Position numbers and translations under genes: made by a program. Below, piece by piece: positions 7,636-24,863 of a DNA stretch of 64,000 nucleotides. The DNA lies in the NCBI GenBank assembly GCA_963796565.1, contig CAWCMA010000003.1, positions 2,454 through 66,453 on the forward strand, in the 5' to 3' direction. Source of the stretch: an uncultured delta proteobacterium (lineage in GTDB: Bacteria; Desulfobacterota; Binatia; Binatales; Binataceae). A model generated the notes under the pieces. The model was not told where the DNA came from. It searched no databases and was given only the letters and a program-made list of their open reading frames with translations. Each line of letters starts with the position of its first letter. The stretch's first letter is position 1.

Positions 7636-7703
7636 TTGTCCCGCCTCCGATTGTTGGGTTCACCGCCTTCGCGCAATGTTCGCGAGCAATCGCTCACCAA
7701 ACC

Positions 7704-8394: not shown

Positions 8395-8685
8395 GTGGCA
8401 CCGCGCGAGTTCGTGCAGGCCGGCACGGCCCTCGAGAAACTCCTTGGCGAGCTGGCACTTGAACTCCAAACTGAAGCTGCGATACCGAGCCGATTCGGCT
8501 TTGGAGCCGCAAAATACGAGGCGGGCGAGTTCACCGATGAGCTCGCGGAGGCGGTACGGATCGCTGAATGTGAGCGCAAGATCGTTGAACTCGAGCGCAA
8601 GGTCGGTCAGCTGACGATGGAAATGGAAGTCGATCTGCTCAAAAAAGAGGCGCTGTTGGGACGCCGAGTGAGCGACGGGGCCTAG
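8395..8685 (+). mobile_element. IS3-family OrfA-like fragment (leucine-zipper part only)
   Basis: '...ECERKIVELERKVGQLTMEMEVDLLKKEALLG' resembles the C-terminal leucine-zipper region of IS3/IS911 OrfA. There is no HTH N-terminus and no orfB downstream. Confidence 0.35.
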
Positions 8686-8848
8686 CGGCCCGAAGCTTTC
8701 TCTGTCGCGCGAGGATGCCGAATTATGAAGCTGACGTTCTCGACCTACTACTACTCCTACTCCTGCCGCCGCGCGGCGGCGTGACACCTCCGAAACCCAA
8801 CCAGCAACGACGATGAGCGAACCGGCGGGGAACATACAAGCAGCGCGT

Positions 8849-9661
8849 TTAGCGGAGCGGCTCGACCGAGCCGACCGCCTTGATCGCGGTCCGTCGCGCG
8901 TAATTGAGCTGGCGCTCAGGTCCGCCTTTTTTTGAGAGATCGCGAGCATGCAGTATTTCGTCTCTGATTTGTTGTTCCGGAAGGCCTCGGCTCGCTGCGT
9001 GTAAAGCCCACGCCATGTCGGCGCGATGAAGGTCGCCGCTGTACCGAGAGTCCGCGTGAAAATCGGAGAGAGATCGCACTGAGTCGTCCTTCGAGGTCGC
9101 TTCACTCACTGTGCGCGTCGAGCTTTCCGCGCTGGCCCTGCGAGCAAGCGATTTTACTTCCTCGAGAAATTCGCGCGCTGCGGTGTAAGTGCGGCCCTCG
9201 CATTCATGCAAGCGAACGAACGGTGGAAGACCGGTCTGCAGCCGTCTCTTCGGCTTCTGATTCGTGAAGCCCGCAAGTCGGCCGAAGTGGCGCCAATCGG
9301 CGCTCGAGGGATCACCTCCGAAGCGGCGCGCCAGCTCCTTCGCGGCATCGGTACTAAAGGTGCGATCGAAGAGTATCCGTCCGTGGTTTAGCCACACCTG
9401 AAAGTTGCCCGGCGAAGTCTCTATAACGGCGGCTGGCTGAAATCCTGCCTCCGTCATTCGCGGGATCGTTTCAGCGCTGAGATCGTCGACCAGGCTCAAC
9501 GCATGAGTGCCGTGTGGGCGGACGAATATTTGTGCACCCCGCGCATTCTCCCGCCTCAGCCACGCGAGAGCGGCGTCAATCTGATCGGCGCTCCAGCCTT
9601 TTCGGAGCAACATCCGGCCATCCATCCGGAGAACGCCAATTTCGAATAGCTCGCAGCGCAT
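8849..9661 (-). CDS. repB: RepB'-type (IncQ/RSF1010-like) replication primase
   Basis: Blocks 'CELFEIGV', 'IFVRPHGTHALSLVDDLS', 'VIETSPGNFQVWL', 'DPSSADWRHFGRLAGFTNQK' and 'PPFVRLHECEGRTY' align with the RSF1010 RepB' catalytic domain, and a C-terminal helix-bundle part follows. This is from recall, not a database search. The N-terminus may be slightly truncated. Confidence 0.75.
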   Translation of the reverse strand: MRCELFEIGVLRMDGRMLLRKGWSADQIDAALAWLRRENARGAQIFVRPHGTHALSLVDDLSAETIPRMTEAGFQPAAVIETSPGNFQVWLNHGRILFDRTFSTDAAKELARRFGGDPSSADWRHFGRLAGFTNQKPKRRLQTGLPPFVRLHECEGRTYTAAREFLEEVKSLARRASAESSTRTVSEATSKDDSVRSLSDFHADSRYSGDLHRADMAWALHAASRGLPEQQIRDEILHARDLSKKGGPERQLNYARRTAIKAVGSVEPLR

Positions 9662-9827
9662 CGCGCAGAGCTGTTTGCGAACAATCGATCCGTGAAATTG
9701 AAGTGGGCATCAGTTATTGCTTCCGTCGACGCCAGGAACACGAAATCTCCTGCTCAGATTTTGCTGGTCGCTTTACTCATCGCCGTCGTGCTGGTGTCGG
9801 GGCTTTCGTAACGCGCGGTGCCTGGAT

Positions 9828-10976
9828 TCATCGGCGTCGTACTTGGAGCGCGTGATGGCATACCGATGTGCCTCGAACGTCTTTCGGGGCGGGCACACGC
9901 TGGCCGCCGTCAGTGCCGAGATTGCCCAGCCGTTGGGTCTGTCGGCCGAAGTCCATGGCGTTGACCCATCCAGCGCCTTCACTGCTGCTGCCTGCGCCAG
10001 CGTTCCCAAGCTGCGCAACTTTATTGAATCCGGTCTGGAGCGCGCTTGTGATGGGTCGAATCACTGTTTGCGCTATGTATGCGGCTTCAAAAGCATGGCT
10101 AAGAGCAAGGCCGATCGTGCCCCCAGCGATTCCTGCTGCCGTATAAGGGACGGCGATACTCACGACCATAAAGACGATGGCGCCCGCTGCGTAGTTGAGC
10201 ATTGCTGACACGGGCAGACTCCCCGAGCAGACGGTTGTGAAGATCGCGCTTGGTGGCAACCCGTAAGTGGTCCACCATGGAAGCGTCGTTGTAACAGGTT
10301 TGCAAGCTGCTAACAGTGCCGAAGCCCATTGGTTCGCCATCTGCACTCCGATGGCGAGCACGAGGTAGAAGAAAAGGAGTCTGACACCGACGCGGAGGAC
10401 ATAGCCGAAATAGCCCTCTGCTGCAGGGGCGGTGAAACGATTCGCGCCTAAACCTAGGAGAAGCACCCCGCCGCCCACCACCAAGTAGGATTCGATCAGA
10501 GTCAGAAGCAGCATTGCTGCCGTGATGACAAATGACAGAAGGACCACGAATGCGGACACGCTTTGAACGATCGCGAGCTCGATGTCGGTCATCAAACTCG
10601 CGTTTGCTGGAGCATTGAAAATGGTCGTGGAAATTTGGCCACCAATTTGCAGCACAGTCTGTGGGCTAAGAGCCGGCAACCCGGTAATTGCAGCGCCGAT
10701 GCCCGAAAAGCTCTTGAGGACTGCATTCATCCAGGAGAATGCGTTCACGATCATCAGGTAAACAAACCCGCCGCTCAGAATATGTTTAATGAGGCGACCC
10801 AAGAAATGTGAGGCGTCAAGCTGACCCTCAGCTGTGAATTGTATCCACGTTACGAGAATGTCTATCAGCAGGAGCGCAATGAAGAGTTTGAGTGCGTAAG
10901 GTTGGATGGCGGCACTGTATTTGAGACCCGCGCTGTAATATTGCGCTGCTATTGCATCGAAGCCGCTCATGATCAT
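9828..10976 (-). CDS. trbL: P-type conjugative transfer protein TrbL/VirB6
   Basis: Polytopic membrane protein. The N-terminus 'MIMSGFDAIAAQYYSAGLKYSAAIQPYALKLF...' is typical of TrbL, and the C-terminal tail is Gly/Ala-rich. It follows trbJ/trbK. The start was chosen at the internal Met (10976) rather than at the track's upstream start (11144). Confidence 0.85.
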   Translation of the reverse strand: MIMSGFDAIAAQYYSAGLKYSAAIQPYALKLFIALLLIDILVTWIQFTAEGQLDASHFLGRLIKHILSGGFVYLMIVNAFSWMNAVLKSFSGIGAAITGLPALSPQTVLQIGGQISTTIFNAPANASLMTDIELAIVQSVSAFVVLLSFVITAAMLLLTLIESYLVVGGGVLLLGLGANRFTAPAAEGYFGYVLRVGVRLLFFYLVLAIGVQMANQWASALLAACKPVTTTLPWWTTYGLPPSAIFTTVCSGSLPVSAMLNYAAGAIVFMVVSIAVPYTAAGIAGGTIGLALSHAFEAAYIAQTVIRPITSALQTGFNKVAQLGNAGAGSSSEGAGWVNAMDFGRQTQRLGNLGTDGGQRVPAPKDVRGTSVCHHALQVRRR

Positions 10977-10999
10977 GCTCCTCCAAAAGACGAATTGTT

Positions 11000-11188
11000 T
11001 TACGGCTGGGGTGGTGGCGCGCCCGGTGTAGCGTTGAGAAAGTTTGGAAGGCCTGACGGTGGGGGAGCTGTGAAGGCCTGATGATGTTCTTCTTCCGCAA
11101 CCCGTCCCTGATAGAGGTGCCAGAGTCCGTAAAGAACGGCACACACGCCGACGAGCGCGAAGACCATCATCATCCTTCTTGCGTTCAT
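11000..11188 (-). CDS. trbK: Small membrane protein in the TrbK (entry-exclusion) position
   Basis: 62 aa with a signal/TM N-terminus and a Pro-rich tail. Located between trbJ and trbL as in P-type trb operons. Confidence 0.4.
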   Translation of the reverse strand: MNARRMMMVFALVGVCAVLYGLWHLYQGRVAEEEHHQAFTAPPPSGLPNFLNATPGAPPPQP

Positions 11189-11315
11189 TCGAACTCTCCT
11201 TCAGAACACTTCATTTAATTGCTACGGCTGTGGCGGCGGCGAACCGGCGGCCGTCTCTAGAAAGTTCGGAGTGCCCTCAGGAGGGGGCGCGGAGAACAGT
11301 GCTTGCGCCTCCAAA

Positions 11316-11984
11316 CTACTCTGGACCTGATGTGTTGACTTGATTTGCTGCCGCTACGTTCTGCGAATTCATCTCGGCCATGACGAGTTGACGCAACATC
11401 TGAACCTGCTGTACCTGCGCGAGCGCGATTTCGTTGCTGACCTGAACCGCCTGCAGATTTCCTATCGCCGTTTGATTCTTGAGCTCAAGGGTTTGCAGCG
11501 ACGCCTGCTCCGCCTGAAAGTTCTGGGCCTGAGCCTGGGCCGAAGCGAGCGCCCCGTTCAGAGTGTTCAGCGTCATGCCGACGGTCGCCTGCGGACTCTG
11601 AACTCCCGCGGTCGAGGCCGCGTTGAAGCCCGGATAGAGTTGCTGAAACTCCTGCGTCAGCCCCTGAAAGGTGTACGAAAGCCCTTCCTGCTGGTTGATC
11701 AGATTTCCGAGGTTACCGAGCAGGTTCTGGTTGGATTGCCAGACTCCCGCACCACCGCCGGTCGTATTCTTAATCGCGTACTGAAGCTGCTGAGCCAAGT
11801 TGGTAACGGTGGCGGTCTCCTGCTGAAGCTGCTGCAGCTGACGGGCGAACATCTGTGGGTCGAAGACGATCTGAGTGCCGCCTCCAAACTGCGTGTGCGC
11901 CGGCGCTGGCTTTCCGAACAGACAAATCAACGCGGCCACGACCGCAAGGAATTGTGGAGAGCGTTTTGTGCGATTCATTGACAT
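11316..11984 (-). CDS. trbJ: Conjugal transfer protein TrbJ (VirB5-like)
   Basis: Signal peptide followed by a Q/L-rich coiled-coil ('QQLQQETATVTNLAQQLQYAIKNTTGG...'), typical of TrbJ. Positioned after trbE. Confidence 0.8.
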   Translation of the reverse strand: MSMNRTKRSPQFLAVVAALICLFGKPAPAHTQFGGGTQIVFDPQMFARQLQQLQQETATVTNLAQQLQYAIKNTTGGGAGVWQSNQNLLGNLGNLINQQEGLSYTFQGLTQEFQQLYPGFNAASTAGVQSPQATVGMTLNTLNGALASAQAQAQNFQAEQASLQTLELKNQTAIGNLQAVQVSNEIALAQVQQVQMLRQLVMAEMNSQNVAAANQVNTSGPE

Positions 11985-14494
11985 ATCTCCGGTTGATTGA
12001 GCTTCCCGTTGGCATGGAACGAATTCCCGTTCGCTCCGATCAACGCTACGACCCGTGGATCAGATTGTGGGTAGAGCTTCTCGAGGTACTCGGCCCAGTC
12101 CGGCAGTCCACGAATGCGAAGCCATTCAACAGTCCAACGGTCGCCATGCTGCTCGATCATTCGCCGCGCGGAAAGCACGTCGTCCTTCGAGCCGGCGCCT
12201 ATGAAGGCGAGCGCCGCAGGACCAAGCGAGAACTGAAACAGCCGCCGTCCAAGCGGCGAGACGTAATAGTAGTGTCGTTTGGGCGTGGCATCAGCGACAA
12301 TATCGATTTGCCGATCTGAGAGTCCGAACCGTCGGTACATCTCACGGCTCGCGGCATTTTTCGCTTCTGCGTTCGGCAGATAAAGCTTCGTCGGACACGA
12401 CTCCAGAATCACGTCGCGATGAGGCGAATTGGCGATCTCCGCGAGACTTTGGGTCGCCAGCACGACAGCGGCGTTTTTCTTGCGTAGGGTGCGCAGCCAC
12501 TCCTCGACCTTCGCGCCAAAGACGCTATTGGTGAGCATGATCCATGCTTCATCGAGCACGATCAGCGTAGGTCTGCCGTCGAGTCGCTGATCGATGCGAT
12601 GAAAAAGATACGTGGCGACAGGCACGACGACTTTCGGTCCCATCGCCATGAGCGTTTCGAGCTCAAAGGTGACGAAGCGCCCTTCGAGCAGCACGTCGTG
12701 GTCGGCGTCAAGAAAGCGCCCGAGCGGACCGGCGAGTGAGAAGGCATTCAGACCGTCCCGCACCGCATTGTCCTGAACCTGGGTGACGAGATTGCTGATG
12801 GTGCGCTGCTCTGGCGGACCTTCGCCGACAAGTTCAAGCGCCCGCCACAATGCCTTGCGCTGCGCGGGAACCAGTCGAACGCTCTGAAGTTCCAGCCAGT
12901 CTTCGAGGAGACTCTGCAGCTTCATGCGATCGGTTTCGTCGTCGACGCGCGCGAGCGGTTGCAGCGGCACCTCGTCCTCGCCGAGGTCGAGGTGTTGTCC
13001 GCCGAGTGCCTTGGTCAGAACGAATGCCGAGTAACCCTTGTCGAAGAAGAAGACCTGGCCGTCGGGAACTGCGCGGAAGTTTGCCGCGATCGCTCCGAGA
13101 GCGACGCTCTTGCCGCTGCCCGTAGGACCGTAGATGCCGGTGTGACCGGTGTCCCCGACGTGCAGGTTGAGCCGGAACGGCGTGCTGCCGGTCGTCGCGC
13201 CATAACAAAGCGCGGGCGTGTTCTTCGGATAGTAAGGGCACGGATTTATCGCGAGCCCTGGCCAGATACTTGTCAGCGGGAGAATGTCGGCGAGGTTCTG
13301 AGTGTTGACCAGCGGGCGGCGCACATCGTACCAGCCGTGCCCTGGCAGCGAACCGAGCCATGCTTCGACCGCGTTGATCGATTCGATCCTGGGATCGAAG
13401 CCCATGTTCTGGCAGACCTTGAACACGAGCTGCGCGTTCTCATCCGCAACCTCAGCACGGTCCTCCGTGATGATCACTTTTGGAGTGACGTAGCAGTAGC
13501 GGACCGCTCCGCCCTCGGCCTCCATGATCGCCTCGTCAGCGTCGGCAGCCATTTTGAGTGCATGCTGGTTTTGAAAGGCTGCGCCGGCGCCGGAACCGAA
13601 GTGCTCGCTGATGATGCCGCGCAGCCCGAGTCGCTTCTGAAACCAGTTGCGCCGGTAAACGGTCAGTTGGTTAATCGCCGTTCTCGGTCCGACCGGAATC
13701 CCACGAATCGAGTAGCGATAACATATAGGCAGTTCGCTCAGGAACGCGGCCATTTCCGCAAATGAGAAGGGCGGAAAACCAGCCAGAGCGACGACGCGGA
13801 CGTGTCTTCCGCCGACGCGGGGTTTGAATCCTGCGATCAGGTCCTGATTGCCGAGAATGGCATCCAAGTAGGTAGGCGTTCGCGGCACGGCGATCTCGCA
13901 TATTCGCCCGTTTATGCAGCTCGCGAGATGGGAAAGCAGGGCAGGCATTTGAAGCGCGGTCAGCTTCCACACTGGACTGATCGCATCTTCGAACTCGCGG
14001 AGTTTCTGCTTGAACCAGTTGTGTTGTCGCCTCCAGTGGGTATGCTTCGGCGCACCCGAGAGAAACACGCCGGCGATCCGCGTCTGCGCATCACTGGGCG
14101 GACGATAGGTGATCGTCAGAACGCATCTCGTCTCGAAATGCTGACCCTCGGCGGAGTATTGAATCTCGCGCTCTCGGTCGAGCGCCGTGCTGACCGGATC
14201 GGGAAACGTTCGACTTGAATATTCGACGCTCGGATAGCGGAACAGGTCGATGTTGTACTGGAACCCGTCATCGAGACGCGCGAGCGCTCGATTGCCCTGG
14301 GCGCGATGAGCGTCGAGTTCCTCGACGCTCGCCGAGTTGAGGTCAAGACCCGAGCACTCGAAAGCCGACAGAAAGGCGCCATCTTTGAGCGCGATCGTGT
14401 AGTCGTCGACTGGGATTGCGTAGTTAAGCTGATCCGGCAGCCCGAGCAGCTTGTCGCGCTTACGTCTTAAATCCTTGAACTCTTTGAGAAACAT
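11975..14494 (-). CDS. trbE: Conjugal transfer ATPase TrbE/VirB4
   Basis: 839 aa with Walker A 'GPTGSGKSV' and Walker B 'LIVLDEAW'. VirB4-type architecture. Intact. Confidence 0.95.
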   Translation of the reverse strand: MFLKEFKDLRRKRDKLLGLPDQLNYAIPVDDYTIALKDGAFLSAFECSGLDLNSASVEELDAHRAQGNRALARLDDGFQYNIDLFRYPSVEYSSRTFPDPVSTALDREREIQYSAEGQHFETRCVLTITYRPPSDAQTRIAGVFLSGAPKHTHWRRQHNWFKQKLREFEDAISPVWKLTALQMPALLSHLASCINGRICEIAVPRTPTYLDAILGNQDLIAGFKPRVGGRHVRVVALAGFPPFSFAEMAAFLSELPICYRYSIRGIPVGPRTAINQLTVYRRNWFQKRLGLRGIISEHFGSGAGAAFQNQHALKMAADADEAIMEAEGGAVRYCYVTPKVIITEDRAEVADENAQLVFKVCQNMGFDPRIESINAVEAWLGSLPGHGWYDVRRPLVNTQNLADILPLTSIWPGLAINPCPYYPKNTPALCYGATTGSTPFRLNLHVGDTGHTGIYGPTGSGKSVALGAIAANFRAVPDGQVFFFDKGYSAFVLTKALGGQHLDLGEDEVPLQPLARVDDETDRMKLQSLLEDWLELQSVRLVPAQRKALWRALELVGEGPPEQRTISNLVTQVQDNAVRDGLNAFSLAGPLGRFLDADHDVLLEGRFVTFELETLMAMGPKVVVPVATYLFHRIDQRLDGRPTLIVLDEAWIMLTNSVFGAKVEEWLRTLRKKNAAVVLATQSLAEIANSPHRDVILESCPTKLYLPNAEAKNAASREMYRRFGLSDRQIDIVADATPKRHYYYVSPLGRRLFQFSLGPAALAFIGAGSKDDVLSARRMIEQHGDRWTVEWLRIRGLPDWAEYLEKLYPQSDPRVVALIGANGNSFHANGKLNQPEICQ

Positions 14495-14512
14495 TGTTCC
14501 ACCTCTCCACCA

Positions 14513-14884
14513 TTACGCGCGGATCTCCTTTGGTATCGGTACGGACGGCCGGATTCGTGGTGGCGGCGCAGTAACTGAGGCGCGAGCGGGATAGTAGTCC
14601 TGCTGATGCACGTGCCGGACGTAGACCCGGCTGAGCTGGGGATCGAACTTCGCCGCCTGAACCAGCGCCCAATGGCCAACCGTGAGCAGGAACGTTCCCA
14701 TGGCAATCGTGTACCAGTGGAGCCCGCCGCCAAACACCAAAGCGGCGGCTGTGATCCAGTTGGCGATCGCCAGAGGCCGTTCCGCGCCAGCGAGAAGAAT
14801 TGGCTGGGTGAGCGATTGATGAATCGCGCTGACCCGCCGCTCCGCTTCGCCCATCACCCTATCCTCCCTAGAAGAGCGCTCCAC
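14513..14884 (-). CDS. trbD: Conjugal transfer protein TrbD/VirB3
   Basis: '...PILLAGAERPLAIANWITAAALVFGGGLHWYTIAMGTFLLTVGHWALVQAAKFDPQLSRVYVRHVHQQDYYPAR' matches the TrbD pattern (.. RYxxxYPAR). Confidence 0.85.
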   Translation of the reverse strand: MERSSREDRVMGEAERRVSAIHQSLTQPILLAGAERPLAIANWITAAALVFGGGLHWYTIAMGTFLLTVGHWALVQAAKFDPQLSRVYVRHVHQQDYYPARASVTAPPPRIRPSVPIPKEIRA

Positions 14885-15217
14885 CGAGTGGGAATAAGGT
14901 CGTCATCAGCTGTGTTGCGCCCAGAGCGCAGGAGCCGCCGAACGCAAGCGACGACATTTTCCGCACGCCGGTTCCGTGTTCGCTCACTGACCACATGATC
15001 CCGGTGCCGATGATCGCTGCGGTAGTGATCGCGTGAGCGACCGGACCCTGAAGGTCGTTCTGCAGAGTCGTGAGCGGCGCGTCCCACGGCAAGCGCCGCC
15101 TGCGGCGACAGCCGCGAACGCCTTGACTGGCCATACGAATGTGACGACCCCGTATGCATAAGCAATCGACGACGCCCATTTCCTCCACGCACTTTTACTT
15201 TCTTGCAGCCGCTTCAT
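14868..15217 (-). pseudogene. trbC: TrbC/VirB2 pilin gene with a -1 frameshift between signal peptide and pilin core
   Basis: GGAGG RBS then ATG at 15217. '[41 protein letters not shown]' (signal) is in one frame. '[40 protein letters not shown]...SLAFGGSCALGATQLMTTLF' (pilin core) is in the -1 frame. The switch is at ~15091-15102, in a GGCGGCGC run. Confidence 0.7.
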
Positions 15218-15249
15218 TTCACGTACCTCCTTGGTGATCGAATAAAACC

Positions 15250-16239
15250 TCAAGCCGTGATGGCTTCGAGGCCTTCATCCAGCTTCACAGGCGCAAGCGC
15301 GAATCCGTCGCGCGCGTTGTATCCAGCGACGCGAACAACTTCCGTGATCCGTCGTCCCGCGGAACTGCGGACGATGAATACGAGCAGGTTGATGGTTTCG
15401 GCTATGAGTTCCGGTTGCGGTGGCACGCCCGCCTCCTGCACGAGACTGGAGAGCCTCGTCAGCGCAGCTCGCGCGCTATTCGCGTGGATCGTGGTGACTC
15501 CCCCCGGATGGCCGGTATTCCATGCCTTCAGCAAAGCGAGCGCTTCGGCGCCGCGGACCTCACCGATGATGATGCGGTCGGGACGTAGCCGCATCGTCGT
15601 GCGGACCAGGCGTGTCATGTCGGCGCTCTCAGCTGTGTGAAGTTGGACCAGATTGTGAGCGCGACACTGGATTTCGAGCGTATCCTCGATGATGACGTAG
15701 CGTTCGTTCGGGTCGGAGCGCTCGACCATTTCATTGATCATCGCTCCGGCGAGAGTTGTCTTGCCCGAGCCGGTGCCGCCGGCAACGACGACATTCAGAC
15801 GCCGGTCAATTGCGTTGCGCAGAACTTCCGCATGGATTTCGCGCAGGATATCGTCGCGAACGTAGTCGTCGAGTGTGTAAAGCACTTGCGCAGGCTTGCG
15901 CATTACGCAGCAGGGTTTTCTTGCGACTGGTGGAAGCAGGCCTTCGAATCGAATGCCCTCGATCTGCAGCTCGCCCTCCACGATCGGACTGCTCGCGTTG
16001 ACTACCGTTCCGAGTGACGCCGCCACGGTTCCGATGAGGCTCTCCACCTGCGACGAGGCGAGCCGCAGACCGGCTTCGTGCATCCCCTTGCCGTAGGATT
16101 CGAACCAGACGCGCCCGTCCTCATTGACGATGATCTCGGTGATCTGAGGGTCGGCGATCGCCGCCAGAATTTTTGCCCCGAGCTGCCGTCTGAGCAGTTC
16201 GTCCAGGCGACGCTCCTGAAGCTGTTGTGCCGCGATCAT
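15250..16239 (-). CDS. trbB: Conjugal transfer ATPase TrbB/VirB11
   Basis: Walker A '[12 protein letters not shown]'. VirB11/GspE-like secretion ATPase. Confidence 0.95.
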
Positions 16240-16679
16240 GCGGACTCTCCGTTGCGGCCGGCACCGCTTTTTTGCGCTGGCATTGGCTCTTCCATCCGTT
16301 TCAGCGTTTCCTCCACTTCGGCTCGCAACCCGCGATGGCGCCGCTGGCCTGAAGCGAGCGCCTGTTTGCGTTGCGCTTCGGGTATTTCGGGCAAATGGCT
16401 CAGCATGCTCAGAGCGAACTGATCGACCATCGCAAGCAGGGTAGTGAGTTGGTGAGCGAGCGGTTTCAGGGTTTCCGCCATGGAAGAGCGGCTCGCCTGA
16501 ATGATTCGTTTCTCAGCCGCTGCGAGAGTTGCGTCCGAGAAGGTCAGCCCGGAGCCACCCTCGGATTGAAAGAGACGCTCCTTCACGTATCGCGACAGGG
16601 TGATGCCGCGCTCATCGGCTTCGTCGCGCAGTCGATGAAATTCCTCTTCACTCAGGTAAGCAGTGAGTTGTCGTCTCAC
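16236..16679 (-). CDS. CopG/ribbon-helix-helix DNA-binding protein (the small regulator found between traG and trbB in Tn4371-type ICEs)
   Basis: 'MRRQLTAYLSEEEFHRLRDEADERGITLSRYVKERLF' is an RHH fold motif. It overlaps the trbB start by 4 nt. Confidence 0.7.
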   Translation of the reverse strand: MRRQLTAYLSEEEFHRLRDEADERGITLSRYVKERLFQSEGGSGLTFSDATLAAAEKRIIQASRSSMAETLKPLAHQLTTLLAMVDQFALSMLSHLPEIPEAQRKQALASGQRRHRGLRAEVEETLKRMEEPMPAQKSGAGRNGESA

Positions 16680-16895
16680 AGTAATCTCTCCTTAACGCCT
16701 TCCTCTTTCGGCGCGTCGGCCGCGTCCTTCCCGTTCTCAACGGCGAATTTCAGAAACGAGAGCTGCTCCGCGGGCGCTGGCTTGACGCGGCGAGGCTTTG
16801 CCGGTGACGACCTGAACGGGCTTCTGGTCAGTCCTGCCGCTCTTGCGGCGCGTACTTCTCCGTGCTGTCCTTCGGTTCCTCGTCATCGTCGTCGG

Positions 16896-18810
16896 CTACC
16901 GGCGGAGCGTATTCGATGCGATCGCTCTTCGGTGGCGGAGCAATCTGCGCAGCCGTTTGAAAGATGGATCGGAGTAGTAGCGAAGTTTCGTCGCTCGAAT
17001 CGCTGGCCGGCCACTGGTGAAGATCAACGCCTCGTTGGAACCCAGCCGCATCGCTTCGTCGGGCGTGATCAGCGGCCTCGCCACTTCCGGCTCCGAGACG
17101 CTCGCACCCGAGCTCGATACGGTCCGATGCGCATGGCGCACTGTGGTTTCCCCGGTCATCTGCGAGAGCAGCCGCGCCGTTTCGATCCGATTCGGAGCGA
17201 ATGCGACGCGCGTATGGCAGTTGGAGGTTATCGCCTCATCGTGCCCGTATGCGGCGTGGATCTGACTCAGATCCTGCGCGATCAGGCACGCTTTGATTCC
17301 GTAGCCGGCGACCAACGACAGGGACTCTGCGAACACGTCGAGCCGCCCGAGACTCGGGAACTCGTCGATCATGAGCAGCAGGCGATGGCGATATCCGGTC
17401 ACCGCTCGGCCGTTTCGAAATTCCAGATGTTCGGTAAGACGATGAAGGATCTGACCCAGCATTAGCCGAATCACCGGCTTGAGGCTGTTCTTGTGTGCGA
17501 GTGGGACCGCGATGTAGAGCGACACGGGCCGTTCGTGATTCATCAGATCTGTAATTCGAAAGTCGGAGACCGCGGTGTTCGCGGCAATGACCGGATCGCG
17601 GTAAAGCTCGAGGAATCCCTTCACCTCCGAGATCACGCCCGAGCGTTCGTTCGGGCTCTTGTCGAGCATGCTGCGCATCGCGCGCGCGATGATCGGATGC
17701 GTCCTGGTCGGAATGCCGCGCGAATCGGTCCAGCCCAGCGAGCCGGATGGATCGTGCTCGGCCCGCATGATCTGCTGCATGGTGTCGTCGATCGGCTGGC
17801 CCGGATCGCACAGGCGCGCTTCCAGTCCGCTGAGAGTCTTGTCCCGTCCGGCATAAAGCTGATCCAGGATCATGCCGGTGAGGAAGGCCGAGCCTTCGCG
17901 CGACCAGTGATCGGGCAGCCCTTTCCCGTCCGGATCGATGATCATTTGCACGATGTTGCGGACATCGCGGATTTCGTTGGGTGTGCCGGAGCCTGACTTC
18001 CGCGAGCGGATTGTAACGAGCGCCGTCGCTGTCGGCTGAGGCGGGTGCGAACTTGAGACAAAGCTGGCCCATTCGTTTCCGAGCTCCGGCCGTGAGCGCC
18101 CAGTTCTCTCCTTTCAGGTCGTGAATCAGGACTGAGTACGGCCAGCTGAGCAGTGTGGGAATCACGATGCCGACGCCCTTGCCGCTCCGCGTTGGCGCGA
18201 AGACCAGGACATGCGCGGGGCCACAATCGCGTATGAATGAAGCTCGTCCCCACTCCCGCCAAACGCCGAGATAGATTCCAGCGCGGCGGGCCCTTGGTCT
18301 CAGAATCCGCAAGCACACACCGATTCCTCGCAGCCATTCGCGTATTGACCTGCGCGCATCGATCAATCGAGCGGCTCTCAGATCACGCGCGGTTGCCCAG
18401 CGCGCGGAACCGTGAAGGTCAGAGACGTTCGCGAACCAACCATGCCGCACCATCGCGATAGCCGCGCAACAAACCGCCGTCACGACCGCCATTGGGTAGA
18501 GCGCCTCGCGAGCGCACTCTTTCCAAAGCGATTGCAGTTGCGGAGCCCAGTACCATCGGGTCCACCAGACAATCCACGACCACGGCGCGTATACTGCTCC
18601 GCCCCTCAGGTGGAAAAGCGGTTGCCCCAGCCACGACGCATGGCGGAGCACGCTCGCCGCGTGCTGTGTTGTCACCGAGTTGATCGCGATGAACGCTCCG
18701 ACCAGTGAAAGCACGGCGCGCCGTTTCGCACGGGCGAGCCTCGCATCCGCTGAGAATCCGGGAATTCGATAGGGACGCTGTTCAGCCATTGCGCTCCCTC
18801 TCCCGTTCAC
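16896..18810 (-). pseudogene. traG: Type IV coupling protein TraG/VirD4 split by a +1 frameshift
   Basis: The N-terminal frame (17236..18810) carries TM helices and Walker A 'VFAPTRSGKGVGIVIPTLL' up to '...ARYNPLAEVRL', then becomes Arg/Pro-rich nonsense. The C-terminal frame (16896..17951) continues 'GTPNEIRDVRNIVQMIIDPDGKGLPDHW...LLLMIDEFPSLG...CLIAQDLSQI'. There is one extra C at ~17986-17991. Confidence 0.85.
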
Positions 18811-19813
18811 GGACCCGATCCATGCCGGAATCGATTGTGCGCTGGCGGCGCGAACGACTCTTGATCACGTCTTTGGAGACTTGGCGCTCACGCAGCTCGC
18901 GTTCATGGTTCTGCGAAAGCTCCCAGCTTCGCTCATCGACGCGCTTGGCAAGTCCTAGCCTTGAAAGAAATTGCAGGCGATCGATCTCTTGTTCAGCTCG
19001 AATCCGGGCTCCCTCGCTGCGCGGTTGGGACTGGTCATACGCGACGAGGCCATTTCCGTCGGCCTTTCTCTGCAACGCGCGGTCGATCTCGGTCCACTGC
19101 TCGCGCCTGACAGCGCGCTCACGCGACCGCAACATCTCGGGCTCCAGCCGCGGACCCAATTCCCGCGTCGCGATCTCCTGGCTCCGGATACGCAGCCCTG
19201 AGCGCAAATACTCGCGGTTGATCTCCAGTGGTCTGCCGTTTTCGCGCACTCCACGAACGAGCAGATGAACATGCGCATCGTCGGTGTTGTGGTGATCGAT
19301 CGCGACCCATTCCAGCTTCGTGTCGAGGTCGCGTTCCATCTGGCCGACCAGCTCGCGAACGTGGTCGCGAAGATTGAGGCGATCGGCATCCTCGGGCGAA
19401 ACGATGAACCGCCACATGAGTTCGTCGCTCTTCTCCCAGTCTCTGACCGTGGCAAGCATGTCGATGTCTTCACGGTCCGCATCGAAGCCCAATCCCTTCG
19501 CCATTTCCTGCTGCGCGCCCGGCCGCGACAAGTAGCGCGCATGGGCAGCCCACGCGCCGCTCCGGCGGTTGCGCGAGAAAGAGGCCTTGACCACGCTGCG
19601 CCGCGCATATGCCGGTGGTTCCGCGATCCGCACTCGCGCCGCGCGCGCGCCGCTTAGACTTCCGCTCGGCTGCTGCCGTCGCAGCCCTTGCCGTATGCCT
19701 ATCCGCCGCAACGCGCGCGCCCACCACGGCACGAGTTTGCGCGGACGCTCCGCATGCTCGTGGCGGAGCTTGATATCGACCTCTTTCTGGCGGAGGAACC
19801 TAGGCCGTTTCAT
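18782..19813 (-). CDS. Relaxase (VirD2-like/DUF3363-type mobilization nuclease), possibly short or truncated
   Basis: 'SVVKASFSRNRRSGAWAAHARYLSRPG...WRFIVSPEDADRL' matches the DUF3363/RlxS-like pattern. The histidine triad 'AIDHHNTDDAHVHLLV' matches relaxase motif III (HxDxxHxH). At 343 aa it is shorter than typical ~600-aa homologues. Confidence 0.75.
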   Translation of the reverse strand: MKRPRFLRQKEVDIKLRHEHAERPRKLVPWWARALRRIGIRQGLRRQQPSGSLSGARAARVRIAEPPAYARRSVVKASFSRNRRSGAWAAHARYLSRPGAQQEMAKGLGFDADREDIDMLATVRDWEKSDELMWRFIVSPEDADRLNLRDHVRELVGQMERDLDTKLEWVAIDHHNTDDAHVHLLVRGVRENGRPLEINREYLRSGLRIRSQEIATRELGPRLEPEMLRSRERAVRREQWTEIDRALQRKADGNGLVAYDQSQPRSEGARIRAEQEIDRLQFLSRLGLAKRVDERSWELSQNHERELRERQVSKDVIKSRSRRQRTIDSGMDRVRERERERNG

Positions 19814-20210
19814 CGCACACCTCGGTCAACGCCTCGCTGAGGGCGAGTACCAGTTTGGTCGGACTCTCCGGCGCCCGCCCGCCGAGCGCTTCGATGATCT
19901 CGCGCAACTGCCCGCTGCTGAGCGTGATCGCGTGCAGATCCTGCGCGCGCCGCCATGACTTCCACGCGCGCTTGCCGGTCGCGCGTTCGTCGAGCTTCTT
20001 CCGCCCGATCGTCGCAACGTGCGCCCGCTGCGCGGGCGTAAGGTCGCCAGCCTCCTGTGCGACGCTGAGCAGGGCGCCCAGCAGAAAGTCGGGCGGCTCC
20101 AGATCGAGGCCTGCCAGCGCGATCAATCCGCCGAGGTTGGCGAGATGATGCACGCGCAGTCCCTGCTCGGGGCTGTGACTGTTGCCATTTCCATTTCCGT
20201 TGCTGTTCAT
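19800..20210 (-). CDS. Hypothetical conjugation-associated protein (136 aa) between traF and the relaxase
   Basis: Starts 'MNSNGNGNGNSHSPEQ...' 4 nt after the traF stop. No recognisable motif. Its position suggests a relaxosome accessory protein. Confidence 0.4.
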   Translation of the reverse strand: MNSNGNGNGNSHSPEQGLRVHHLANLGGLIALAGLDLEPPDFLLGALLSVAQEAGDLTPAQRAHVATIGRKKLDERATGKRAWKSWRRAQDLHAITLSSGQLREIIEALGGRAPESPTKLVLALSEALTEVCDETA

Positions 20211-20215
20211 GGCAT

Positions 20216-20777
20216 TCACCACGTCACGACCGGTTCGATTTCTCCGCGAACGTTCGCGAGCGGAATCGGACCGAAGTAGCGCGAGTCCCAGCTCCGGCGA
20301 TCGTTGAAGCCGAACAGCCACACCTGGCCGGCTGCCGACTCGATGGCTGCCCCACGCGACATGCGGAAGCGGGCGGTGTGCGCTGTCATGGGTGGCAACT
20401 CTGCTGCGCGCGAACCGTGCGCCGTTCACCGCAACCCATCCGGGTTCGATCTCGACGCTATCGCCGGGGAGAGCACCCACGATCTTGCCCACCGGCTCCG
20501 CGTTGCCGGCGCACGCGCCAGTGCGCAGATAGCCGCGCGCGAGACCCTCCTGGGCGATCGGGATCGGCAGGCATGCCGCAACCAATTCGCCACGCTCAAT
20601 CCCGTGAGCGACGACACGATAGACGCCTGCCGGTGCGGCGCTGTCCGTGTTCGAGATCAGTACGCCGAGTGCATTGCCGACTGCGATTAAGAGCGCTGCT
20701 GGCGATCGCAATTCCGGCCATCGCTCCAATGGGTCCGCGAGCGCCTTCCAATTGTTGAAAATGAATGCGCTGGGCAA
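20216..20777 (-). pseudogene. traF: TraF-type S26 signal peptidase (pilin maturation) with an internal frameshift
   Basis: N-terminal frame: '...ACLPIPIAQEGLARGYLRTGACAGNAEPVGKIVGALPGDSVEIEPGWVAVNG...VATHDSAHRPLP'. The peptidase box E 'SWDSRYFGPIPLANVRGEIEPVVTW*' lies in a different frame (60-aa ORF 20216..20398). The frame switch is at ~20340-20380. Confidence 0.75.
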
Positions 20778-21001
20778 GCGATCCGGCGGGGTTTTCTGCC
20801 GTGCTGTACAGTGTGCTGATCATGACTGCCTCCGAGGGGGAAAGGCCGCGAGTTCGTTGAGCAATCCGCCGAAAATGCCGCACCGTACCGCAGGTCCTTT
20901 ATCTTGCTCTACGAACGACCGGCCTTCCCCCCTCTCCAACGCACCCTTCCAATCCACTCCTTCCGCGCGCCGCAAAGCGGCTGAGAAATTCCTGAAAATC
21001 C

Positions 21002-21247
21002 TCACTGCAGTTTCTCCGTCGAAGGTTCGGTTACGCGGCCATTCAGTTTCCGGCCCGGACGTGGGGCACCTTCGAGCTCGGCCTTGATCTGCTTGCAGAG
21101 CCGCCACATCGCCGCCGTGATCGTCTCGCCAAGATCGAAGCCCGCATCTTCGGCCCGACTGCGCAGTTGCTCGATCTCACGCTTGAGCGCCGCAGGCAGC
21201 TTGAACGTGATCGCTTCGCTTTCCTGTTTGCGCTTGAGAACTCCCAT
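21002..21247 (-). CDS. Ribbon-helix-helix (Arc/MetJ-like) DNA-binding protein
   Basis: 81 aa. 'ITFKLPAALKREIEQLRSRAED' is a β-strand plus helix RHH signature. It lies between trbI and traF, a possible relaxosome/oriT accessory position. Confidence 0.5.
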   Translation of the reverse strand: MGVLKRKQESEAITFKLPAALKREIEQLRSRAEDAGFDLGETITAAMWRLCKQIKAELEGAPRPGRKLNGRVTEPSTEKLQ

Positions 21248-21280
21248 TACATTTCTCCTTGCGTAATTGGATTGTGGAAT

Positions 21281-22413
21281 TCACTTCCCGTATGGGCCGG
21301 GGAATACGAGGTCCTGGGTGATCATCACGTCGAACTGGTAGCCCGGCCGGATTTCAATCGTCGGTGGACGATTTAATCCCTGTCCCATCATTTGCTGACC
21401 CAGTGCCCCGAATTGTCCCGAGGCGGCTGAACCGGCGGTCTGACTCGCCATCGCCCATTGATTCGGTTGGTAGTAACCGTACGGTCCGTAGGAGGCGCCG
21501 CCTCCAAAAGTCGCCATCTGTCCGACGGCCTGGCCTGCGCTGATCAGGCTCATAACGGCGGCGGTTCCGAACGTTGCGAGATAGTGGTGGTCAATCTGAT
21601 CGGAGAAGCCGGCGTAGCCACTCTGATCGGCGCCCGGCATCATCGGCAGATTCATGCTCGAGGTGTTCGGGAAGATGAGCCGCTGCCACGCGATCTGAAC
21701 GCGCTGCTGACCGTATGAAGATGCGTTCTGGTAGGCGCCGATGAGGCGGCTGCCTTGCGGGATGAGAATCGATCTGCCGGTCGCGCTGTCGAGGACGTTC
21801 TGGCTGACCTGCGCGAGAATCGGTCCGGGCAGATCTGAGTTAATGCCACTGATCAGAACGGCAGGGAGGATGCTGCCCGCCATCACGGTGTACGGCGAAG
21901 CGGCGGGGTGAACGCTTATCGTCGGGTTGGTCTGATCACCGGAAGTATACGAGTCAGCCTGCTGTCCGTTTGCGCTCGCGATCTCCAGCGTTCCGCCACT
22001 ATGAAACGCCTGCACCATCTCCGGCGATTCGAGCGCCTTCATGTACTTCTCTTCGGCCCATTGCGCATACCGGCTCGGGAGGCTTCGGCGCGCTGGGCTG
22101 AACGGGCGCTTGCGAGATCGGCATAACCGGTTCCGTCGGCATCACGGTTGGTGCCGCATGCGGCTCTGCGCCATGAGCTGCGAGGTCTTCGATCTCGCCT
22201 CGGTCTCGGGCTGCTGAGCCTGGGTCGTCGGCTGATTTCTGGGAAGAGGAAGTTTGACCTATCCCTGAGGACTGGACGCCGAGTGCAAGCGCCACTCCGC
22301 CGAGCATCGCAATCGCCACGAAAACCACGCCGAGAAGGCGATTGAAACGGCCGCCGCCAAGATGCTCCTGATTCCTGCTCTTCTTGCTCCTGAATCACGT
22401 CTGCGGTTGCCAT
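21281..22413 (-). pseudogene. trbI: TrbI/VirB10 with two frameshifts (three frames)
   Basis: ATG at 22413, 5 nt after the trbG stop, gives 'MATADVIQEQEEQESGAS'. The TM segment 'GGGRFNRLLGVVFVAIAMLGGVALALGV...PKPPEP' is in a second frame (shift at ~22350-22365). 'YAQWAEEKYMKALESPEM...IRPGYQFDVMITQDLVFPGPYGK*' (VirB10 C-terminal domain) is in a third frame (shift at ~22062-22075, extra G in a CCGG run). Confidence 0.8.
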
Positions 22414-22418
22414 GGCCG

Positions 22419-23366
22419 TTACCTCGTTCCTCCTGCGTAGGAGATAGTCACGCGGTCCTGATCGCGGCCCACGCCGGCGACCAGGATCGCATCGCTGAAG
22501 AGCCGATCGACGACGTAGTAGTTGCCTTTGACGCGGTAGTTCACCATCTGGGTTCCGCTGCCGGCATTGATGAGCAGAGCGGGAGCTTCGCTCGACTTCA
22601 TTCCGGCAGGCATCTGGACATAGACGTGAGAACCGTCGTCGAAGGCTCGAACCGGCTTCCACGGAACGTTCGGTCCTGCGACCGTGTAGGCGAAATTGAT
22701 CTGCGCCGGATCTACGGCTGCGACCTTCACGGTGTCGTCGGAATCACCCGGCGGATCGGCCGCTTCCTGCTTGGCCTTCGCTGCGGCGGTGTCGGCATCT
22801 TTCATCGCTGTAGACAGCTCGTCGGGGTAGTAGAACTCCACTTCCTGCATCGCGTGCCCACGCGACCGGAGCACCAGATGGTAAATGTGCTTCGTAGTGT
22901 AAATTGTCAGGTTGGTTTCGATACCCGGGACCTGCGGCTTCACCGCAAGATGAGGAACAGCATTGCGCGGGTCGCCTGAGGCGGCCGGCGTCGCCATCCA
23001 GCGCTCGGTATCTCCCAATGCAACGTCGGTGATCGTCTCGCCCGGCTGCAGCTGAATGTCGGTGGTGCGCAGCGGCGCGCAATCGACGGTCGGCTCCGGT
23101 TCCTGGTTATAGGGATAAAGTGTGTACTCGGCCGTTCGGTAGACGGGCCACTTGCCGTCTTGCTCATGCTCTTTGACTGCACCCTGCACCTCGGACGGCT
23201 GCTGTGCGAGCAGTTGCGCCCCGGTCGGTCGGGGCGGCGCCGCAGTCGGCATCGCGGGAGACTCTGTTACGAGTTTCAGCGGCGGTGGTGCGGGCGGTTG
23301 TTGGTGACTCGCGCACGCACTGAATAAAAGTGCGAGCGTCAAGGTTCCTGTTCCAATATATTTCAT
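22419..23366 (-). CDS. trbG: Conjugal transfer protein TrbG/VirB9 (lipoprotein)
   Basis: Lipoprotein signal 'LTLALLFSAC' and VirB9-like β-rich body. It sits between trbF and trbI. Confidence 0.9.
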   Translation of the reverse strand: MKYIGTGTLTLALLFSACASHQQPPAPPPLKLVTESPAMPTAAPPRPTGAQLLAQQPSEVQGAVKEHEQDGKWPVYRTAEYTLYPYNQEPEPTVDCAPLRTTDIQLQPGETITDVALGDTERWMATPAASGDPRNAVPHLAVKPQVPGIETNLTIYTTKHIYHLVLRSRGHAMQEVEFYYPDELSTAMKDADTAAAKAKQEAADPPGDSDDTVKVAAVDPAQINFAYTVAGPNVPWKPVRAFDDGSHVYVQMPAGMKSSEAPALLINAGSGTQMVNYRVKGNYYVVDRLFSDAILVAGVGRDQDRVTISYAGGTR

Positions 23367-23390
23367 CGCATATCCTTCCTTCCGGACTGG

Positions 23391-24068
23391 CTATCCCTGC
23401 TGCTCGGTCCAGCTGATCTGCGTCACGTAAAAGCCGAGCGGATTGCTGATGATCGCGTCGTCGGAGTTTGGCGGGACTATCTGTGTCTGGAGTACGGCCT
23501 CCCAATGTGTGGGCGCTCCAATCACAACTCCGTTCAGATCGCGCTTTTGTTCCGACCAACGTACCTGGTAGCTGCTGGGCGAGAGCTGAAGAATCGAATC
23601 GATTTGGATCGAGACGGTCTGCTTCTCTGCAAGCTTGAAAGGGTTGTGAGTGAAACTGTCGGAGTGATAGTAGGCGTCGAGGAATCTGTCCGCAGCTCCG
23701 CGCGCATGCGCGAGCATCGAATCGAGCATCTGGTGTTCGACTTGGGGATCGCTGGTGACCGAGCGCGCATCTCGGATGAACGCCGCGACCTCATAGCGCT
23801 GCACTCGCGCAGCTACGTCGGGAACGGACGTCGGATTGAGAGGCTGCGGAACAGTGAGCGCGTAACCGAGTTTGTCGACTTCAACGACGTACGGAATGTA
23901 GCGGCTTCGGCTGATCAGCCAGACCATGCCGCTGGCGAGAATCAGCGAGAGCAGAAGCAGGCCGCAAGCCGCTACCTGCCAGTTGCGTTTGCCGAGAACG
24001 AGATCGGCGTATCGCTCATCCCACTCTCGACGCGCTTCGACGTAGAGATTCGCACCCATCGCGCGCAC
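23391..24068 (-). CDS. trbF: Conjugal transfer protein TrbF/VirB8
   Basis: N-terminal cytoplasmic segment, single TM 'VAACGLLLLSLILASGMVWLI', and a VirB8-like periplasmic domain. First gene of the trbFGI block. Confidence 0.85.
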   Translation of the reverse strand: MRAMGANLYVEARREWDERYADLVLGKRNWQVAACGLLLLSLILASGMVWLISRSRYIPYVVEVDKLGYALTVPQPLNPTSVPDVAARVQRYEVAAFIRDARSVTSDPQVEHQMLDSMLAHARGAADRFLDAYYHSDSFTHNPFKLAEKQTVSIQIDSILQLSPSSYQVRWSEQKRDLNGVVIGAPTHWEAVLQTQIVPPNSDDAIISNPLGFYVTQISWTEQQG

Positions 24069-24254
24069 ACTCCTGATCGCCGCTCGCTCTATAGCGTCGG
24101 TTTAGTGTCCGAGAATTGTCCGACTTCTGTCCGTGAACTGATCCCAACAGGCTCCAAAAGGAACCAAGATGAAGGGATGAAATGGCTTGATTTTGTTGGA
24201 CTATGTAGAGTCGAATCGGGGCGGGTTGCGAGCAGATTCAGTCTTTTAATCAGA

Positions 24255-24284
24255 GGGTCCTGGGTTCAAGTCCCAGACGGCTCA
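24255..24284 (+). other. 3'-terminal tRNA gene fragment (T-arm plus acceptor 3' strand); probable att-site scar of the integrated element
   Basis: 'CTGGG-TTCAAGT-CCCAG-ACGGCTC-A' is a perfect 5-bp T-stem with a TΨC-type loop, then a 7-nt acceptor strand and a discriminator. No matching 5' acceptor strand, D-arm or anticodon arm can be folded from the ~75 nt upstream, so this is a fragment and not a gene. It lies 190 bp from trbF at the edge of the conjugative block, followed by AT-rich DNA. Confidence 0.5.
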
Positions 24285-24863
24285 CTCAAAACCCTCAGAA
24301 GCATTGAATCTCTTCTAGGCCCAACAAAGGTCAAGAGCTGTTGAGTCTGTTGATATAGACACAAAATAGACCTTTTGCTCGAGCTGGAAGGAGGCTGACC
24401 CCGGCACCGGAATGAAGACCCTGGTAATTCCTTTGGCTTGGAACCGCCACGCGCCCTGAAGGGCGCTCGCAGGCTGAACCTGAGCGCAGTACGGCGCAAA
24501 CGTAGCCTCCAGGAAAATCAGTACAAGGAAGCGCCGGAGGAGCAGACCTCAGACGCGCTCTCTCTGCCTCGCTGACATGGCCCGATCTATCGGTCTGTAT
24601 CAGGCGCTCGCACGCGATGTACTGTCGGCGTCCTGCCGAGCCCGTTTCCAGCATCATATCAGAGGCAAAATTCCAGTCGAATCAATCAAAAATACAAAAT
24701 TTATAATACAATCTATGGCTATTTGACTCTAGCAGTGATTATCTGTAGCTTTCCTTATCGAAAATCACGTGATAATCGTTGCGATGGCTTTGATCATGCT
24801 GGCAGGCATCCGAAAATCTGAGCAAGGACATCTCATTACACCATAGGGCGAGGGAAAAAAACA

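Follow-up and report, generated by a model that had tools for sequence, protein, structure and literature searches.

The DNA considered here is a 64,000-nucleotide stretch (the window) of contig CAWCMA010000003.1, from an uncultured delta proteobacterium of the Binataceae (GenBank assembly GCA_963796565.1). Its minus strand carries trb and tra conjugation genes and a repB' primase gene in an unusual order, and several of these genes are frameshifted. Is this block a degraded mosaic peculiar to one genome, as a first-pass annotation of the sequence had proposed, or a regular member of a family of mobile elements? Our analysis indicates that positions 8839-24290 probably represent the conserved conjugation core of an integrative conjugative element (ICE), located at its attR end. 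The ICE family documented here is apparently abundant, often with several copies per genome, in the uncultured lineage Candidatus Binataceae. No paper in the literature library that was searched links Binatia with conjugation, and the family is, on this evidence, previously undescribed.

Extent of the element and its relatives

A TrbE scan of one genome per species yielded 51 loci (L001 to L051), with TrbE identities of 55-97%. Nearly all come from metagenome-assembled genomes (MAGs) labelled Candidatus Binataceae, Binatus or 'uncultured delta proteobacterium', and several of these MAGs hold two or three copies of the core. When the window is aligned with these relatives, homology to locus L045 spans exactly 8839-24290, and the limits of homology are sharp and common to the relatives, at 8839-8847 and 24160-24290. 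The contigs that hold the modules of the relatives are chromosomal and reach 4.6 Mb. Chromosomal integration and an attachment (att) junction at the element end (24241-24290), both features of an ICE, are found.

Diverged copy sets occur within single MAGs (L015/L020/L049, L040/L045, L032/L036, L007/L012 and L014/L017/L035); L015 and L049 look like a single copy that contig ends have cut in two at trbE. Locus L002 (93% TrbE identity) is in a MAG labelled Betaproteobacteria, and L016 (95%) and L022 (64%) are in MAGs labelled Gemmatimonadaceae. These labels could reflect either cross-phylum transfer or mis-binning of a mobile element.

The tRNA edge

The right edge of the element harbors two features:

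24241-24290, plus strand: attR-type tRNA 3' fragment, Lys(UUU)-like, extending from the anticodon loop through a degenerate CCA end
24106-24133: three copies of the direct repeat TGTCCG, with a period of 11 bp, in the interval from the start of trbF to the att fragment

A 48-nt tRNA 3' piece is common to the window and L045, and similarity ends exactly at 24290, in agreement with the tRNA 3' fragment that had been placed at an edge near 24.26 kb. Homology that stops at a tRNA 3' end is the signature of the distal att junction in elements that integrate into tRNA 3' ends, and the fragment marks the junction between element and chromosome. In each of eleven relatives, a tRNA 3' segment of ~47 nt (anticodon loop through CCA) precedes trbF by about 150 nt. 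The fragment is Lys(UUU)-like in the window and L045, of a second kind in L001, L011, L023 and L038, Lys(CUU)-like in L043, and Thr(CGU)-like in L002 and L021. In L037, L015 and L048, Arg(CCU)-like and Leu(CAA)-like fragments are located further upstream. ARAGORN called no tRNA in the 64-kb window, and Rfam returned a sub-threshold tRNA match at 24208-24284 (17.8 bits) with the anticodon loop CUUUUAA. A full pseudo-tRNA at 24208-24284 is unlikely, as its apparent 5' half is element DNA that is similar in relatives with other tRNA fragments.

The repeats next to the fragment are kept as CGGACA in L001, L002, L011, L021, L023, L043 and L045, and two copies of GCCAAAGTC stand in their place in L015, L037 and L048, which have other tRNA fragments. 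They are plausible candidates for recombinase arm-type or regulator binding sites. A scan for promoters and terminators upstream of trbF gave nothing above chance.

Gene content of the core

Genes were assigned by Pfam and NCBIfam profile searches of the open reading frames (ORFs) of the window, and ORFs repaired for single-base indels, as described below, were compared with those of the intact locus L001. The core comprises the following genes, including ribbon-helix-helix (RHH) candidates and a primase of the archaeo-eukaryotic (AEP) type:

23391-24068, minus strand: trbF (VirB8-like); PF04335, E = 4e-44; NCBIfam TrbF
22419-23366, minus strand: trbG (VirB9-like, CagX/TrbG); PF03524, E = 1e-50; TIGR02775, 194 bits, above cut-off
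21281-22422, minus strand: trbI (VirB10-like); PF03743, E = 4e-60, on the C-terminal part
21002-21247, minus strand: conserved 81-aa ORF 3' of trbI, RHH-like by eye; conserved in L001 and L035
20820-21005, minus strand: small conserved ORF of ~61 aa; conserved in relatives by tblastn, an ORF in L001 and L035
20216-20883, minus strand: traF (S26 pilin-maturation peptidase); partial matches to TIGR02771 and PF10502
19800-20222, minus strand: TraD-like protein of ~140 aa; PF06412 TraD, E = 5e-7
18782-19813, minus strand: relaxase, MobA/VirD2-type, 343 aa; PF03432, 30.8 bits (cut-off 24.6)
16828-18810, minus strand: traG (VirD4-type coupling protein); PF02534, PF12696, PF10412
16236-16679, minus strand: 147-aa RHH/NikA-like protein in the 'CopG' position upstream of trbB; PF21983, E = 6e-4, below cut-off
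15250-16239, minus strand: trbB (VirB11-type ATPase); TIGR02782, 396 bits (cut-off 304)
14868-15253, minus strand: trbC (VirB2 pilin); PF04956; raw ORF 14868-15188
14513-14884, minus strand: trbD (VirB3-like); PF05101
11975-14494, minus strand: trbE (VirB4 ATPase), intact, 839 aa; PF03135, PF19044
11222-11984, minus strand: trbJ (VirB5-like); TIGR02780, 85 bits, below the cut-off of 100; raw ORF 11316-11984
11000-11188, minus strand: TrbK-like 62-aa membrane protein or lipoprotein; resembles a 62-aa ORF at the same place in L003
9754-10976, minus strand: trbL (VirB6-like); PF04610; TIGR02783, 128.5 bits (cut-off 128.85); raw ORF 9828-11144
8849-9710, minus strand: repB' (RSF1010-type AEP primase and helix bundle); PF16793, E = 2e-34; PF22448, E = 5e-8

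The minus-strand trb/tra/repB' gene list given earlier for 8849-24290 is borne out by the ORF listing and by both profile collections, as is, from the profile matches, its description as a complete P-type Trb/Tra type IV secretion system (T4SS). Both ATPases of a type T mating-pair formation system (MPF_T) are present, a VirB4-type TrbE and a VirB11-type TrbB, together with counterparts of all the channel and pilus components VirB2, B3, B5, B6, B8, B9 and B10, among which TrbJ is the weaker match. A relaxase and a type IV coupling protein, as needed for self-transmissibility, lie alongside the T4SS, with the integrity of the genes depending on whether the indels are real.

Several genes are split or fused in the raw sequence. 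The raw ORFs of trbI are 21999-22328 and 21281-22042, those of traG overlap (17236-18810 and 16896-17951), and the raw ORF 19800-20777 consists of a shifted traF frame fused to the TraD-like part, which is a separate 140-aa ORF in L001. In intact relatives TrbI has ~380 residues, TraF 201-221, the TraD-like protein 140, TraG ~700, TrbC 115-128 and TrbJ 249. The TraD-like protein is likely a relaxosome accessory. The 147-aa RHH/NikA-like protein is 96% identical to the ORF of L001. Neither of the two small ORFs that follow trbI has a Pfam match. The 81-aa one, at the place where canonical elements have DUF2274, had been annotated as an RHH protein; its conservation and its RHH-like appearance are in keeping with that name, and no Pfam family supports it.

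The relaxase is shorter than the DUF3363-type enzyme that had been announced. No DUF3363 domain was detected in it with Pfam or NCBIfam, and the RlxS model NF041267 is covered at positions 44-321 of 654 only, with 196 bits against a cut-off of 850. The protein corresponds to the N-terminal nuclease half of RlxS-type relaxases. Its length is constant across relatives (343-344 aa, including intact copies), and the short form is therefore native to the family and not a truncation.

Gene order as a family trait

We compared the gene order of the window with that of its relatives by tblastn of all window proteins. All of the ~20 long loci, with TrbE identities from 97% down to 55%, share one order, trbF-G-I, small ORFs, traF, traD-like, relaxase, traG, RHH, trbB-C-D-E-J-L. 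As every long related locus has this order, it does not result from local scrambling. It is that of the canonical circle traF-X-rlx-traG-RHH-trbBCDEJKLFGI-small ORF, with the opening placed between trbL and trbF.

The first-pass annotation had regarded the order as unusual and the whole as an atypical mosaic, a one-off product of this genome that would combine a rearranged Tn4371/IncP-like module with an IncQ primase. The order does differ from that of Ti and Tn4371, also after frameshift repair, when trbFGI is still upstream of traF, and the primase is genuinely homologous to RSF1010 RepB'. Moreover, none of the 72,556 plasmids of PLSDB covers at least 80% of concatenated TrbI, TraF, TraD and relaxase in one colinear place, so that the permuted junction is unrepresented in that database. 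However, neither the order nor the position of the primase is special to this copy: the former is identical in all long relatives, and RepB' is found after trbL in ~10 relatives. Furthermore, the divergence of the related loci (TrbE identity 55-97%) excludes that they are copies of a single recent element, and RepB-family primases adjoin Trb/DUF3363 modules in known plasmids. A one-off mosaic is hardly tenable in the face of these data.

The RepB' primase

RepB' aligns over its full length (residues 1-264) with RSF1010 RepB' (PDB 3H20, E = 6e-37). The stretches LVDDLS, ETSPxNxQxW and RHxGRLAGFTN, which we take to be the catalytic motifs of RepB', are identical or nearly so in the two proteins. 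Both domain families score above their cut-offs, PF16793 with 119 bits and PF22448 with 33 bits, and the earlier identification of an IncQ-type RepB' primase is sound. The gene follows trbL in ~10 relatives, with 64-88% identity (L009, L011, L012, L014, L023, L025, L045, L046 and L049, and a partial copy in L003); the remaining relatives lose homology shortly beyond trbL.

In PLSDB, 349 plasmids encode RepB' homologs, 23 of which are typed conjugative. The best match is NZ_CP080762.1, a 49-kb Diaphorobacter plasmid (45.6% identity) in which the primase gene adjoins trbB and which also carries a DUF3363 relaxase, traG and traF. On pACIX903 of Granulicella tundricola, the RepB primase is close to the genes for ArdC and a single-stranded DNA-binding protein (SSB). 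The best plasmid relatives (39-46% identity) are T4SS-bearing plasmids of Comamonadaceae and Acidobacteriaceae, not IncQ plasmids; PLSDB types one of the best as conjugative and one as non-mobilizable. Since RepB-family primases adjoin Trb/DUF3363-relaxase modules in known plasmids, Trb and RepB' are not an atypical combination. RepB' behaves as an optional establishment gene.

A GC-rich, hairpin-forming noncoding element of ~140 nt directly follows the repB' stop codon in five relatives:

L011, 15620-15760: post-repB' element
L012, 8600-8740: post-repB' element
L025, 4855-4990: post-repB' element
L045, 15655-15800: post-repB' element
L049, 3742-3880: post-repB' element

Neither the window, nor the loci that lack repB', nor PLSDB contains this element. 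RNAalifold predicted stable stems, mostly invariant and without covariation support. It is a possible candidate for a single-strand initiation or priming site of RepB'.

RepB' retains both domains and the three presumed catalytic motifs, and relatives have the conserved hairpin-rich element right after the gene. Could the locus then be an integrated or misassembled conjugative plasmid, an autonomous IncQ-like replicon in which RepB' primes at oriV? A RepA helicase and a RepC initiator are lacking both in the window and in the 25 most frequent Pfam families of the relatives' cargo, and no iterons came up, although neither iterons nor single-strand initiation (ssi) sites were specifically searched for. 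RepB' is the only IncQ replicon component present and, without RepA, RepC or iterons, an IncQ-type replicon is unsupported. The chromosomal contigs and the tRNA-fragment junctions also speak against a plasmid, which we consider very unlikely.

Frameshifts: decay or consensus error

Alignment with five close relatives revealed eight 1-nt indels in coding sequence that are private to the window. A further alignment adds two, near 9862 and 9691, and seven of the ten are insertions:

22371 (+1) and 22079 (+1), minus-strand gene trbI: interrupt the gene; repaired ORF aligns 459/459 residues with L001
20699 (+1) and 20336 (+1), minus-strand gene traF: repaired ORF of 221 aa, 94% identical to L001 TraF
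17987 (+1) and 16951 (-1), minus-strand gene traG: repaired ORF of 660 aa, 657 residues aligned with L001
15092 (-1), minus-strand gene trbC: in the leader region; repaired ORF of 128 aa, 128/128 residues with L001
11332 (+1), minus-strand gene trbJ: last ~30 residues lost; repaired ORF of 253 aa against 249 aa in L001
near 9862 (-1), minus-strand gene trbL: last ~25-30 residues changed, raw ORF end at 9828
near 9691 (+1), minus-strand gene repB': cuts off a 16-aa N-terminal extension of the relatives; ORF from the ATG at 9661 intact

Eight single-base edits, that is all but those at the trbL and repB' ends, restore full-length ORFs colinear with L001, and the repaired TraF regains the C-terminal stretch SWDSRYFGP. 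Automatic repair of every alignment indel over-corrected variable regions and was abandoned for these eight targeted edits. Programmed frameshifting is unlikely with ten sites in unrelated contexts.

The indels can be read in two ways. The first, in keeping with the term 'degraded' in the first-pass annotation, is that they are real and that the locus is an immobile ICE relic. Its cargo, integrase and attL would have been lost through a break right behind repB', for which an IS3-associated deletion may be responsible. Private frameshifts indeed affect trbI, traF, traG and trbC, as well as trbJ, trbL and repB' at their ends, while the ORFs of ~42 kb of chromosome look intact. Homology stops at 8839 beside IS3 OrfA fragments and ORF-poor DNA of lower GC content, and the conserved post-repB' element is missing. 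Decay does occur in the family, since L040 lacks the region from traF to most of trbB and L020 that from trbI to traF.

The pattern of substitutions, however, is not that of a relic. Private substitutions comprise 139 synonymous and 60 nonsynonymous changes and no stops, and the ratio of nonsynonymous to synonymous polymorphism (pN/pS) is 0.14, equal to that of intact relatives; they show purifying selection. Also contrary to decay, the eight edits suffice to restore the ORFs and insertions dominate. Natural bacterial indels are biased toward deletions. Finally, breakage tracks the type of assembly. Among the copies compared, L001, on a SPAdes-named contig, has 0-1 private frameshifting indels, four copies on contigs named 'contig_N' have 3, 7, 10 and 27, and the window has 8, mostly insertions. 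Outside 'contig_N' MAGs, ~184 of 185 core genes are intact (144/145 on SPAdes- or MEGAHIT-named contigs, 34/34 on three contigs without an assigned assembler and 6/6 in L009), against 157 of 216 inside, where 59 are broken. We read 'contig_N' names, from the naming only, as long-read (Flye) assemblies. Since the broken core genes of relatives are almost confined to such contigs, consensus error is likelier than decay. We consider it likely that the indels are a consensus artefact rather than real inactivation, and degradation is not established; a true relic is rather unlikely. The errors would arise from mis-polishing of a multi-copy core, 80-95% similar between copies, in long-read assembly.

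This suggests that systematic consensus indels occur in multi-copy mobile elements of long-read MAGs. Such frameshifts mimic pseudogenisation, yet they follow the type of assembly and have left no evolutionary trace. An element should not be called degraded on the strength of raw sequence until the reads have been checked.

The cargo side and the flanks

The region that follows trbL or repB' differs between relatives, with essentially no conserved genes downstream, and is thus interpreted as variable cargo. It includes genes for SSB (three loci), ArdC, HipA, restriction-modification systems, AbiE and transposases. One Phage_integrase (tyrosine recombinase) ORF lies in the cargo of L045, a locus in which no att copy was found. 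ARAGORN and core searches revealed neither an intact tRNA nor a second att copy within 22 kb of the att end in any relative, hence the members of the family are larger than 22 kb. The window leaves no more than 24.3 kb between attR and its first position. The earlier remark that integrase, ParAB and RepA are missing from the window is correct, but the absence of the integrase is uninformative for these reasons; the far end of the element is probably beyond the window.

In the window, the DNA beyond repB' is of a different kind:

8374-8661: two IS3-family OrfA fragments, head to head on opposite strands; blastp to L049 ORF 7930-8448, and blastn

The 5.4 kb at 3459-8848 have a GC content of 0.53-0.61 and few convincing ORFs. 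No significant Pfam family was found there, and only the IS3 OrfA fragments match relatives.

Several points weigh against our interpretation as an ICE core with artefactual indels. ARAGORN, Rfam, a 25-mer search allowing 3 mismatches and blastn-short of the 100-nt att region detected neither an intact tRNA nor another att copy in the window, which has no integrase either. Homology ends a few bases after the repB' stop codon (8839), and the ~140-nt element of five relatives is replaced by the IS3 remnants and the ORF-poor, lower-GC region; the cargo side of this copy may be rearranged or truncated. The ten indels are not in long homopolymers. The chromosomal ORFs of the same window show no indels, so that an artefact needs a repeat-specific cause. 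Examples are a kinase of 1091 aa with complete domain coverage, an AsmA/DUF748 protein of 1396 aa, and a DUF7948 protein that a homolog of 71% identity matches over its whole length. How the window and the 'contig_N' relatives were sequenced is deduced from contig naming only, and oriT, the promoters and the function of RepB' are predictions.

A search of the flanks yielded no empty site. The histidine kinase at 183-3458 has a host-like GC content at third codon positions (GC3) of 0.81 against ~0.70 in the core, yet it may belong to either chromosome or cargo; it has no ortholog in metagenome contigs, where the best match is 47% identical. On the right, the best DUF7948 homolog (71% identity) has no shared neighbourhood. 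The RepB' of the window is not on record in the contig index.

Other features of the window and of the DUF7948 relative are as follows:

5957-6847: putative secreted protein of 296 aa that contains a collagen-like GPQGPQGPAGPAGPSG run
24864-28289: right-flank gene for a 1141-aa DUF7948 cell-surface protein
41556-42950, plus strand: intact IS110-family transposase (DEDD_Tnp_IS110 and Transposase_20), immediately upstream of a TonB-dependent receptor gene; GC3 lower than in its neighbours
L054, 2994-13420: locus of the 71%-identical DUF7948 relative, the third of three tandem genes with similar domain matches, two with DUF7948 and all three with HYDIN/ASH-type Ig-like domains

Proposed mechanism

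The known roles of the gene families suggest how the element may work. The RlxS-like MOB_P-type relaxase and the TraD-like accessory would nick a predicted origin of transfer (oriT), and TraG would couple the relaxosome to the Trb (MPF_T) secretion system formed by TrbB, C, D, E, J, K, L, F, G and I, with TraF maturing the TrbC pilin. RepB', a solitary accessory primase placed with establishment genes (SSB and ArdC in relatives), would most likely prime complementary-strand synthesis on the single strand that is transferred or excised. In this family, the att site, the integrase and the cargo would be found between trbL and trbF, not after trbI. Integration probably took place at the 3' end of a tRNA-Lys(UUU)-like gene, whose displaced 3' fragment forms the right edge of the element, and the integrase and attL end would be either beyond position 1 of the window or lost.

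A more far-reaching proposal is that the split of trb at the att site is functional and that RepB' and the ~140-nt element jointly constitute a self-contained priming cassette. The trbFGI-traF-rlx-traG-trbB..L block, which starts at the attR end, may lack a strong promoter of its own and may be transcribed efficiently only once excision joins it to the integrase and cargo end. Excision-gated transfer is known from Tn916. The 11-bp-spaced TGTCCG repeats may act as recombinase or regulator binding sites. If this were true, RepB' and the ~140-nt element of the relatives would let the excised or transferred single strand be primed independently of the host. Taken as a whole, this proposal is improbable.

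Comparison with known systems

We compared the core with annotated plasmids, namely those of Diaphorobacter sp. MNS-0, Skermanella (pTT6-1) and Novosphingobium sp. PP1Y (Lpl), and with ICEs of the Tn4371 family and ICEMlSymR7A type. The Diaphorobacter plasmid has the order trbB-C-D-E-J-x-L-F-G-I and pTT6-1 the order trbB...L-F-G-x-I-traG-traF. Plasmid Lpl has traF-DUF736-lytic transglycosylase-DUF3363 relaxase-traG-small ORF, plus trbG-trbI-DUF2274. Unlike these comparators, the Binataceae core has a TraD-like ORF between traF and the relaxase in place of the lytic transglycosylase.

RepB' resembles RSF1010 RepB' (PDB 3H20/3H25) in full-length homology, AEP domain and C-terminal helix bundle, but is only ~35% identical to IncQ-type copies in PLSDB. 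In contrast to RSF1010, it has no RepA, RepC or ssiA/ssiB-bearing oriV beside it and is placed after trbL in an ICE. As with the plasmid establishment genes of pACIX903 (ArdC, RepB primase, SSB), RepB' heads a variable region that holds SSB or ArdC in relatives; the window copy differs from pACIX903 in having neither, and 'leading region' would be a presumptive label for it.

A contiguous trbBCDEJLFGI operon downstream of traG, as in Tn4371, is found neither in the window nor in any relative. The combination of a DUF3363 relaxase with a RepA/ParA/ParB module is likewise absent, RepA and ParAB being found neither in the window nor among the 25 commonest Pfam families of the relatives' cargo. 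Compared with Tn4371-family and ICEMlSymR7A-type systems, the trb operon of the Binataceae elements is split between trbL and trbF, with the att, integrase and cargo region placed there, the relaxase is a 343-aa protein without the DUF3363 half, and integration takes place beside tRNA 3' ends. The shared features are TrbB, C, D, E, J, (K), L, F, G and I, TraG, TraF and the RlxS-type nuclease domain, in the blocks traF-X-relaxase-traG-small protein, trbB..L and trbF-G-I with a small ORF, which are colinear when drawn as a circle. Nothing points to a new kind of system, and the locus is largely an ordinary ICE core. Overall, the Binataceae family is a variant of the Trb/RlxS type, characterized by a conserved permuted backbone, a short, half-length RlxS-type relaxase, tRNA targeting and an optional RepB' primase.

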